This document shows positions 7,715 through 9,331 of a stretch of DNA of 32,000 bases, in pieces. The stretch is taken from assembly GCA_964648855.1 (NCBI GenBank), contig CAZYLT010000006.1:98069-130068 (forward strand), in the 5' to 3' direction. The translations under genes were made by a program, and so were the position numbers. The notes beneath the pieces were generated by a model. That model was not told where the DNA came from. It did not search any database and saw only the letters and a program-made list of their open reading frames with translations. Positions within the stretch are counted from its first letter, which is position 1, and each line of letters opens with the position of its first letter. Source of the stretch: an uncultured archaeon. Its GTDB lineage: Archaea; Asgardarchaeota; Thorarchaeia; Thorarchaeales; Thorarchaeaceae.

Positions 7715-7860
7715 ATGGTTGCCTCGCCTATTTGCCTTGGTGAGATGAGATATTAATAATTCCTAATGGACAGCTGTGGATTTTCTTGATTATATCCATC
7801 TTTTTTCACTCTGGAGATATACAATTTCCCCCATTTTCTAGGTAGAGTGTCCAACAAAAG

Positions 7861-7880
7861 TGTCAGATTTTTGTCAGATT
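7861..7880. repeat. Tandem direct repeat TGTCAGATT x2 (11-bp period)
   Basis: tgtcagatt at 7861-7869 and 7872-7880, in the divergent intergenic region. Confidence 0.5.
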
Positions 7881-7911
7881 CCTCCTTTGCCTAATCCGGA
7901 ATCGGTCGTAT

Positions 7912-7924
7912 GGGAGATTAAATA
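7912..7924 (+). promoter_or_regulatory. BRE/TATA-like promoter for the putative ncRNA
   Basis: Purine run GGGAGA followed by TTAAATA (7918-7924), about 26-28 nt before the GC-rich structured stretch begins. Confidence 0.55.
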
Positions 7925-7949
7925 GCCCTAATCACATAGAATAGTGGAC

Positions 7950-8340
7950 TAGGTGAGTGGGCCAGCAACATCGTGCGGAGCTCGCCGCCGAAAGCCCGAG
8001 GGAAGAAGTCTTCTTCTCGACGGAGGTCCGTACTCTCCACCAATGGGAACCCATCATCTCCCGGAGAGTCCGCGGCTGTTCACCATGCTCAGATATGTCT
8101 TGCTGACTTCGGCGACGGAGCCAGTACGGGTGATCATGAACCCGCCGTGATAAGAACTGTGGAAAGCCTCCCTGTGGCTGAGGGTGATGCCTCAGCAGTA
8201 ACACAGGTGGAGGAAACCAGGACCGTGTGAGGAATACTATCCCGATGACCATGGACAAAGCCCCTGCTCACTCAGTGGCCTTCGGGTACACTGGGGACGG
8301 CGACACTGGCAGGGAACGGGTGGAACACAGAAGTTTCACA
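7950..8340 (+). ncRNA. Unassigned ~390-nt highly structured non-coding RNA candidate
   Basis: More than 12 nested helices visible by eye, a cUUCGg tetraloop (8280-8285), a k-turn-like arm and a terminal hairpin. GC content is higher than the flanks, there is no credible ORF, a TATA lies upstream and the next gene has its own TATA. Confidence 0.75.
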
Positions 8341-8364
8341 CAATTTGAGTTCATTCAATCTGTC

Positions 8365-8380
8365 AGAAATAGTTTATATA
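8365..8380 (+). promoter_or_regulatory. BRE/TATA promoter of the PfkB kinase gene
   Basis: AGAAATAG-TTTATATA (TATA 8373-8380), 60 nt upstream of ATG 8441. Confidence 0.6.
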
Positions 8381-8440
8381 GGCAAGGAATGGAATATATC
8401 TTCCTGAGCAGGTCTTTTACATAGTACTGAGGCCATCTAG

Positions 8441-9331
8441 ATGGAAATCATTGTCGTAGGACATCTGAGCAGAGATTTGATAATCACTCCTGACTATGAA
8501 CGTGAGGCACTTGGTGGTGCAGCTGCCTATGCCATGATTGCTCCCCATCTTGGTGCTCTTGGTGCAGGGATAGTATCACGAGTGGGAGAAGATTTCGAAC
8601 AGACATATGTTGACGATCTCCGTGAGGCGAATTTAGATCTCTCCGGTCTACGAGTTGCTGGAGAAAAAACGACCCGGTTTGTCAACAAGTACGATAAGGA
8701 CGGTAATCGGACGCAATACGTTGAGGCGGTAGCTCCCCAAATCTATCCAGCTGATTTCTCTCCAGAGCATCTTGAAGCCAATATCTTTCATTTCAGCCCC
8801 ATTATCGGTGAAGTACACCCCAACTGTATTGAAACGACAAGGACCTACGGTGTACTGATTTCACTTGATGTTCAAGGCTATGTGCGGGAGAATGATGAAG
8901 GAAAAGTGATACCCAAGGAATGGACGGATGCGGAGCAAATTATTCGACATGTGGACATCGTAAAGTGTGACAAAGAAGAGATGCAGCTTTTTGCGGATGA
9001 TTACTCCGAAAAGGATAGTGCTGAAAAGATTCTGAGGTGGGGCCCTCATGCTGTTATCGTTACCAAGAGCCAGGAGGGTTCATCCATTTATACTAGAAAT
9101 GCTCAAGCTGATATTCCTTCAGTGGGTCCTGAAGATTATGTTGATTCAACTGGCTGTGGGGATACTTATGCAATTGCCTTTCTGCTTGAATATATGAGAA
9201 CTGGCGATGTGAAAAGGGCGGGGCTTTTTGGGGCTTCAGCATCTTCATTTAACCTCGAACATGTTGGACCGTATTCTATGTCGTCGCGCTCAGAGATTGA
9301 AGATCGAATGAAGACATATATGGAAGCCTGA
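8441..9331 (+). CDS. PfkB/ribokinase family sugar or nucleoside kinase
   Basis: VVGHLSRD, LGGAAAY, SRVGED, SLDVQG, DSTGCGDTY signature. Confidence 0.92.
   Translation: MEIIVVGHLSRDLIITPDYEREALGGAAAYAMIAPHLGALGAGIVSRVGEDFEQTYVDDLREANLDLSGLRVAGEKTTRFVNKYDKDGNRTQYVEAVAPQIYPADFSPEHLEANIFHFSPIIGEVHPNCIETTRTYGVLISLDVQGYVRENDEGKVIPKEWTDAEQIIRHVDIVKCDKEEMQLFADDYSEKDSAEKILRWGPHAVIVTKSQEGSSIYTRNAQADIPSVGPEDYVDSTGCGDTYAIAFLLEYMRTGDVKRAGLFGASASSFNLEHVGPYSMSSRSEIEDRMKTYMEA

Follow-up and report, generated by a model that had tools for sequence, protein, structure and literature searches.

What does the GC-rich island at positions 7940-8380 of the 32,000-nucleotide stretch of DNA analysed here (the window) encode? 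Its GC content is 0.55-0.58 against 0.40-0.47 in the surroundings, as the original prediction had seen, and it contains no long ORF, only frames of 40-108 aa. That prediction read the island as a large and ornate plus-strand RNA, transcribed from a gene of its own and possibly a new, Asgard-specific ribozyme or RNP scaffold. The large structured RNA was borne out by covariation; its class was not. The RNA is the omega (reRNA) module of a TnpB family, a new member of a familiar kind of RNA and not a new class, and positions 7816-8377 very probably represent a 562-bp non-autonomous deletion derivative of an ~8.5-kb Thorarchaeota transposon which carries this omega RNA scaffold.

Folding against shuffled sequences gave a z-score of -2.05 for the plus strand and +0.38 for the minus strand. 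Thirty-four homologues, both gene-less and TnpB-linked, from the source genome and its relatives were then aligned, and the RNAalifold consensus comprised 87 pairs in 16 helices. Paired cells reached 94.9%, compared with 86.3% in shuffled alignments and 40-46% when the partners were slid, and none of 500 shuffles attained the observed value. Compensatory double changes occurred in 53 of the 87 pairs (29 shuffled, ~20 slid), a count likewise reached by none of the 500 shuffles, with a covariation score of 0.368 (0.199 and ~0.09, respectively). An invariant U-G pair in the 3' domain (8268/8308) and an invariant G-U pair in the 5' domain (8072/8148) would be mismatches if the minus strand were transcribed, and therefore indicate a plus-strand RNA.

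According to the consensus fold and its pair counts, the 5' domain of the omega RNA (7995-8150, plus strand) is composed of helices H1 (7995-96/8022-23), H2 (8001-05/8013-17), H3 (8032-38/8063-69), H4 (8070-76/8144-50), H5 (8080-84/8129-33), H6 (8087-90/8095-98) and H7 (8101-11/8116-26). The 3' domain (8157-8330, plus strand) is closed by the long-range helix CUGUG 8157-61/CACAG 8326-30, which was 100% paired with four independent double changes, and encloses helices 8168-76/8202-09, 8178-81/8192-95, 8216-18/8319-21, 8223-26/8251-54, 8231-35/8239-43, 8261-69/8307-15, 8271-77/8289-95 and 8298-99/8304-05. About half of the helices previously drawn by eye are found in this fold: the hairpin within 7997-8019 (as 8001-8005/8013-8017), ACUCUCC 8032-38 with GGAGAGU 8063-69, the three-part arm (8168-8209) and the cUUCGg hairpin (8271-8295). 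The long-range closing helices and the terminal hairpin drawn in the same way failed. CAGCAA/UUGCUG, proposed to close the first domain, was unsupported, and 8101-8126 forms the local hairpin H7 instead, with compensatory changes in 9 of 10 pairs; GCCAGU 8120-25/ACUGGC 8305-10 was paired in only 70% of cells, three of its pairs having 13-24 broken cells. The segments of GAGC/GCUC, GCCGC 7984-88/GCGGC and CGGGU/ACCCG pair elsewhere (8070-76 with 8144-50; 8080-84 with 8129-33), and ACGGA/UCCGU would leave a 2-nt loop. The hairpin placed at 8320-39 showed no double change and had broken outer pairs, its halves pairing elsewhere (CACAG 8326-30 with CUGUG 8157-61, GUUUC 8333-37 with GAAAU 8366-70), and the RNA, thought to end at 8340, continues to 8377.

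Beyond the 3' domain, the right end folds into a three-tier stem-loop (8333-8370, plus strand) built of GUUUC 8333-37/GAAAU 8366-70, ACA 8340-42/UGU 8361-63 and UUGA 8345-48/UCAA 8355-58. The outer stem was 89.8% paired, compared with 38-58% when slid, and in 48 single-sequence folds of the right end the mean z was -2.4, with z below -1 in 39. Its apical loop and 3' arm contain a motif (8349-8357) that reads GTTCACTCA in most copies, the family consensus, and GTTCATTCA in the window. Downstream of tnpB in Asgard-linked TnpB groups, a hypervariable stretch followed by GTTCACTCA has been described and suggested as a possible guide (Altae-Tran et al., 2023, PMC10691335). In the present family, the variable bases 5' of GTTCACTCA covary and pair with bases 3' of the motif to form a stem; the variable stretch is thus one stem arm, structural and not an obvious guide. 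In genome G012 (L063-L078), two right-end variants sit on the same CAGUUG/CAACUG stem, one with a 12-14-nt GTTCACTCA loop and the other with a short CCUAG loop that lacks the motif, which implies that the published GTTCACTCA motif is dispensable.

The RNA does not stand alone in the genome. By BLAST, sequences with 66-89% identity occur at ~20 places of the 3.1-Mb assembly, several of them at contig ends. Alignment of full copies with their flanks delimited a unit from ~7810 to ~8381, and flank comparison set the element at 7816-8377 (plus strand); no inverted repeat joining the two element ends was found. The left-end module (7816-7939) carries two direct TGTCAGATT repeats (7861-7869 and 7872-7880), and its TGTCAGA recurs once at the right end (8361-8367). 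Part of this module, 7857-7887, matches L061:1529-1560 (87.5%) and L062:6648-6624 (84%), which are full-length elements of two other genomes. As regards the origin of 7888-7945, BLAST of 7780-7960 against the loci covering the region upstream of tnpB in the closest full element gave no match there. At the right end, homology stops after ..GTTTAT or ..GGTTAT in the copies of the source genome and in 14 copies of G012, and the element's last bases form an unpaired 7-nt tail, AGUUUAU (8371-8377).

Two TATA boxes had been proposed to bracket the island. The upstream one, TTAAATA at 7918-7924 (plus strand), lies ~25 nt before the start of RNA homology and is conserved in all six aligned gene-less copies; we regard it as a putative promoter. 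The second, at 8373-8380, did not stand as a box of the element: it is the junction between the element end and the flank, which together form TTTATATA; a PfkB-type kinase gene has its ATG (8441) ~60 nt downstream. From this arrangement, the insertion may have supplied or altered the promoter of the kinase gene.

The element is a mobile insertion, since a genome of the same genus and a metagenome contig both show the orthologous site without it. In the former (G001:C23), 41 nt separate the two flanking sequences, which are 586 nt apart in the window; in the latter, from a 2021 metagenome of the same study, 7792 is joined to 8377 with 39 nt between and the element is absent. The orthologous intergenic region measures ~271 nt in G006 and G021 versus 876 nt in the window genome. 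Perfect 5-bp direct repeats surround three sibling copies (C8 CTAGA, C56 GTAGA, L026 CTTGA) and agree at four of five positions around a further one (C20). Fourteen 3' flanks in G012 follow the pattern CWWGA; the flanks read T and then CNNGA. In these copy flanks no TAM was separable from the consensus of the 5-bp target repeat. Both empty alleles (G001:C23:10381-10421 and a contig of run X4) read ..GAACTTCGTAGCAGT before TATAGG, a stretch missing from the window at 8378 that finishes in CAGTTAT, similar to the terminal CAGTTTAT of the element itself; its absence may reflect a deletion, a footprint left by excision or a preference in the choice of target. The family is also abundant across the mat community, as in four metagenomes from microbial mats (runs X1-X4) the summed contig depth of the element interior (7940-8380) exceeded that of the flanks 10- to 30-fold. 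In being short and gene-less, and in occurring as many deletion derivatives flanked by target-site repeats, the copies resemble MITEs, from which the present family differs in having no terminal inverted repeats and in an interior that is a selected structured RNA and not filler.

The identity of the RNA follows from the company of its homologues. Divergent copies in the source genome (66-71% identity) lie at the 3' ends of ORFs of 558-624 aa on C19, C28 and C21, with a fourth on C4 detected by protein search, and in C19, C21 and C28 the homologous RNA is encoded across the final ~105 codons of full-length tnpB (~560 aa) and on to the right end. At no fewer than 11 loci of related genomes the RNA follows a full TnpB, and other loci hold the tail relic alone. 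This layout, on the sense strand from the 3' end of tnpB to the right end, is that of TnpB omega/reRNAs, and the RNA is like those of IS200/IS605 and IS1341-type elements such as ISDra2 in its overlap, its reach to the right end and its conserved fold. The partner is likewise a TnpB with zinc-ribbon and NADxN RuvC-III motifs. The ORFs matched Pfam Cas12f1-like_TNB (TNB/zinc-ribbon) above its cut-off and NCBIfam guided_TnpB at E 8e-25, which is below the NCBIfam cut-off, in addition to the Cas12f models of PADLOC and, in the PDB, solved TnpB/Cas12f structures. Three of the ORFs (L011:1356-3194, L012:1507-3180 and L013:1430-3121, minus strand) retain LGIDLG and NADRNG; in these, the canonical RuvC-II position, read from the sequences, is VA(I/L)G(R/K)hKGIR, which puts Gly in place of the expected Glu. 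The canonical RuvC-II glutamate thus appears to be replaced by glycine, as in the "RuvC-II rearranged" groups, and TnpBs with this Glu-to-Gly rearrangement are predicted to be active (Altae-Tran et al., 2023, PMC10691335); by analogy, the activity of the present TnpBs is likewise a prediction. Near these genes, the right end of the C21 element adjoins a tRNA-Gly(TCC) gene (L013:1217-1291), and the flank of the C28 element reads like a tRNA 3' end (GGGAATCGA), where ARAGORN detected no tRNA.

The window itself preserves a trace of the gene. By tblastn, 7931-8242 aligned to aa 459-563 of the C21 TnpB with 38% identity (E 5e-10), so that 7940-8248 (plus strand, frame of 7931) is a relic of the last ~105 tnpB codons, with the ancestral stop TGA at 8246-8248. 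An acidic tail of ~110 aa of TnpB is encoded by the same DNA as the 5' domain of the omega RNA. The conserved AGGTGAGTGGGCC at 7950 codes for G-L-G-E-W-A of TnpB; a splice-site-like AGGTGAGT at the same position, which suggested a group II intron, belongs to this G-L-G-E-W coding relic, and no intron model matched. Stops or frameshifts disrupt the relic frame not only in the window copy but also in C34, C8, C56, C1c and L026. The fold has outlived it: C34 and C8 keep 86 of the 87 pairs despite the broken frame, and across 10 gene-less copies 95.3% of cells were paired, with double changes in 9 pairs against 2-3 when slid and column variation of 43% at paired and 63% at unpaired positions. The gene-less lineage is constrained at the RNA level, not at the protein level.

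The full parent element measures ~8.5 kb, since the left-end segment of the window copy matches DNA just past the 3' end of a giant ORF in two other genomes, and consists of the left end, the giant ORF (reverse strand), tnpB, the omega RNA and the right end. Upstream of each full tnpB, in the opposite orientation, lies a homologous ORF of 1540-1830 aa, and the source genome (G000) contains four full elements (L057-L060; C19:36419-41578, C21:14346-18965, C28:2809-7923 and C4:181313-186802). The giant ORF matched solely "hypothetical protein" entries from Thorarchaeota and nothing in Pfam, NCBIfam, PADLOC, a PDB profile search or the ESM Atlas. A structural model of aa 1-1000 (pLDDT 80) predicts a RecA/RAD51-like ATPase fold (Foldseek E 1.6e-4), and a Walker-A-like GSSGKS and a PD-(D/E)xK-like GRxDL...EIKTK motif could be read from alignments; the C-terminal 735 aa had no Foldseek match at E<=0.001, and no Cas1 or DDE fold was found in the ORF. 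We consider the giant protein a candidate for the transposition function of a new type of element. IS200/IS605 elements insert without target-site duplication, whereas 5-bp repeats flank copies of the present family; and in contrast to IS200/IS605, no Y1 HUH TnpA (PF01797) was found in the source genome, which is 94.6% complete. The "Cas1H-Asgard-1/2" systems (PMC10691335) are alike in their Asgard host, the variable stretch and GTTCACTCA downstream of tnpB and a repeat-flanked locus. They differ from the present element, in which the neighbour of tnpB gave no Cas1 signal in Pfam, NCBIfam, PDB sequence search or Foldseek, the variable stretch pairs as a stem in place of the suggested guide, and the motif is missing from some G012 copies. 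In the source genome, the two canonical Cas1 genes sit on other contigs.

With regard to non-autonomy, the stop-broken relic frame is all that remains of coding sequence in the window copy, and its right end is homologous throughout to those of full elements. The derivative retains ~125 bp of left end with the TATA-like box, the last ~105 tnpB codons and the right end, and the retained 3' part constitutes a plus-strand reRNA scaffold of ~385 nt with its 16 covariation-supported helices, the terminal three-tier stem-loop and the 7-nt tail. Transcription would begin at the TATA-like box and, by analogy with characterised TnpB systems, would enter the flank for ~16-20 nt to yield the guide; 8378-8397 (plus strand) is the candidate guide source should the transcript pass beyond the right end, a proposal drawn from established TnpB biology. 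The RNA would then be bound in trans by the TnpB of the four full-length elements, and the complex would steer cleavage of element-free alleles, which would promote retention and spread of the element. A guide-RNA module used in trans in this manner is, we infer, the likeliest function. The compatibility of gene-less RNAs with these TnpBs, whose own RNAs are the nearest TnpB-linked ones at only 66-71% identity, is assumed.

Gene-less PATE-like elements often encode omega RNAs that are acted on in trans (Meers et al., 2023, doi 10.1101/2023.03.14.532601). PATE-like derivatives of IS605 share with the present family a short length, the lack of a protein gene, both ends, a retained omega RNA and multiple copies, and the element described here would similarly need TnpB and a transposase in trans. 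It differs from them in its Asgard host, in an ~8.5-kb parent with a giant uncharacterised ORF instead of Y1 TnpA, in a non-palindromic left end and in the 5-bp direct repeats around copies. Compared with known omega RNAs, the scaffold is distinguished by ~385 nt, about 19 helices and the lack of an Rfam match at E<=10; the haloarchaeal TnpB omega RNAs ("sotRNA") constitute Rfam RF02656 and RF02657, neither of which matched the window. At 385 nt, the scaffold is longer than omega RNAs are generally known to be, and processing may therefore trim it to a shorter mature form.

The strongest alternative concerns the present state of this copy. The family RNA may be a TnpB omega RNA and the locus nevertheless an inert, decaying remnant without a functional guide now, a reading that has a substantial chance of being correct even though we do not favour it. 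The window copy is probably partly degenerate: it breaks 8 of the 87 consensus pairs, compared with 1 of 87 in C45, C34, C8, L026 and L042, H6 is interrupted by C-A and U-U, the terminal stem-loop has an energy of -7.4 kcal/mol against approximately -15.5 in siblings, and the motif is mutated to GTTCATTCA in place of GTTCACTCA. At its flanks, the left pentamer CTGGA (7811-7815, plus strand), at the site where siblings carry identical 5-nt repeats, agrees with the right pentamer ATAGG at only two of five positions and forms no intact repeat, and the right junction lacks ~16-19 nt of ancestral flank that the two empty alleles contain. On the other hand, the 79 pairs that it keeps are level with some TnpB-linked copies (C29 with 79, C28 with 77), and neither the TATA-like box nor the final bases at the element end have been lost.

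We think it unlikely that the structure serves the transposon in another way, as a single-stranded DNA or RNA site for the transposition machinery or as a cis-regulatory or stability element of the tnpB mRNA. The terminal stem-loop with its short tail does resemble the subterminal hairpins of IS200/IS605 ends, and one full element, in genome G021, bears in its left end (L061:1579-1651) a direct 74-nt copy, terminal stem-loop included, of a right-end terminus (L043:1854-1927, 89%). However, sixteen helices over ~340 nt with invariant G-U pairs go far beyond the needs of end recognition, and two features fit omega RNAs: the RNA stretches from the 3' end of tnpB as far as the right end, and it is precisely this part that gene-less copies have kept.

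A broader proposal goes further than the omega RNA assignment, namely that TnpB with its rearranged RuvC-II, the large omega RNA and the giant neighbour work together as an RNA-guided transposition or homing machine specific to Asgard archaea, with the omega-RNA-only mini-elements as mobilisable guide-bearing cargo or as a dispersed guide reservoir. The 5-bp target repeats recall those of Tn7 and CAST elements. This is speculative, and we would be surprised if it proved correct as a whole.

That the locus is an independent chromosomal gene for a large ribozyme or RNP scaffold of a new class, as originally predicted, is now very improbable. The large multi-domain fold with its strong covariation and the conserved promoter-like box would suit such a gene, as would the lack of an Rfam match, which had been foreseen for RNase P, SRP RNA and introns and was extended to all families: none was found at the gathering score in the whole window, nor at E<=10 in 7750-8500. 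The RNA is nevertheless multi-copy, mobile, missing at orthologous sites and homologous to tnpB 3' ends, with some twenty dispersed places in the genome, linkage to TnpB, an empty site and 5-bp repeats around siblings where a gene of its own was envisaged. Two outcomes that the original prediction had named as contradicting it were thus observed, namely numerous scattered copies and codon-like conservation in a short ORF. The housekeeping RNAs are located elsewhere in the genome: GGAGGAAAC with ACAGAAG, which resembled the P4 helix of RNase P, had no Rfam match, and a good RNase P RNA lies at C6:41563; the SRP RNA is at C2:49700, and no tRNA or tmRNA was found in the window.

A small protein encoded by ORF 7973-8230 can be practically dismissed: its frame resembles the TnpB tail, which is the codon-like conservation detected there, and is still open over this range in C45 and C20, yet it has no ATG and a GTG start inside the RNA, is interrupted in the window by stops at 7937-7939 and 8228-8230, and in most siblings carries stops or frameshifts while the RNA pairs are kept.

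The distribution of the omega RNA scaffold supports part of the suggested Asgard specificity. Of 24 genomes sampled within the same family, 16 gave DNA matches, and the 16 sampled from outside it gave none; the named relatives are Thorarchaeota MAGs. TnpBs with the RNA-coding tail occurred in 30 of 43 genomes of that family, and other Asgard families showed a match to the TnpB core only (aa 10-456, 32-39% identity). The RNA is so far confined to one Asgard family, of the Thorarchaeota, and the part of the claim that fails is its standing as a new class.

These results remove a false lead to a new ribozyme and explain the look-alike "orphan RNA" stretches in the source genome and related genomes. 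They provide the first covariation-backed omega RNA structure for the Asgard-linked TnpB group. The RNA-level selection that persists in gene-less copies after the loss of tnpB argues for use in trans. A large Asgard omega RNA family is a concrete, testable system for the mining of RNA-guided nucleases and for the relation of TnpB to eukaryotic Fanzors, and the parent element, with a giant protein of no family match and 5-bp repeats, may be a new type of transposon.
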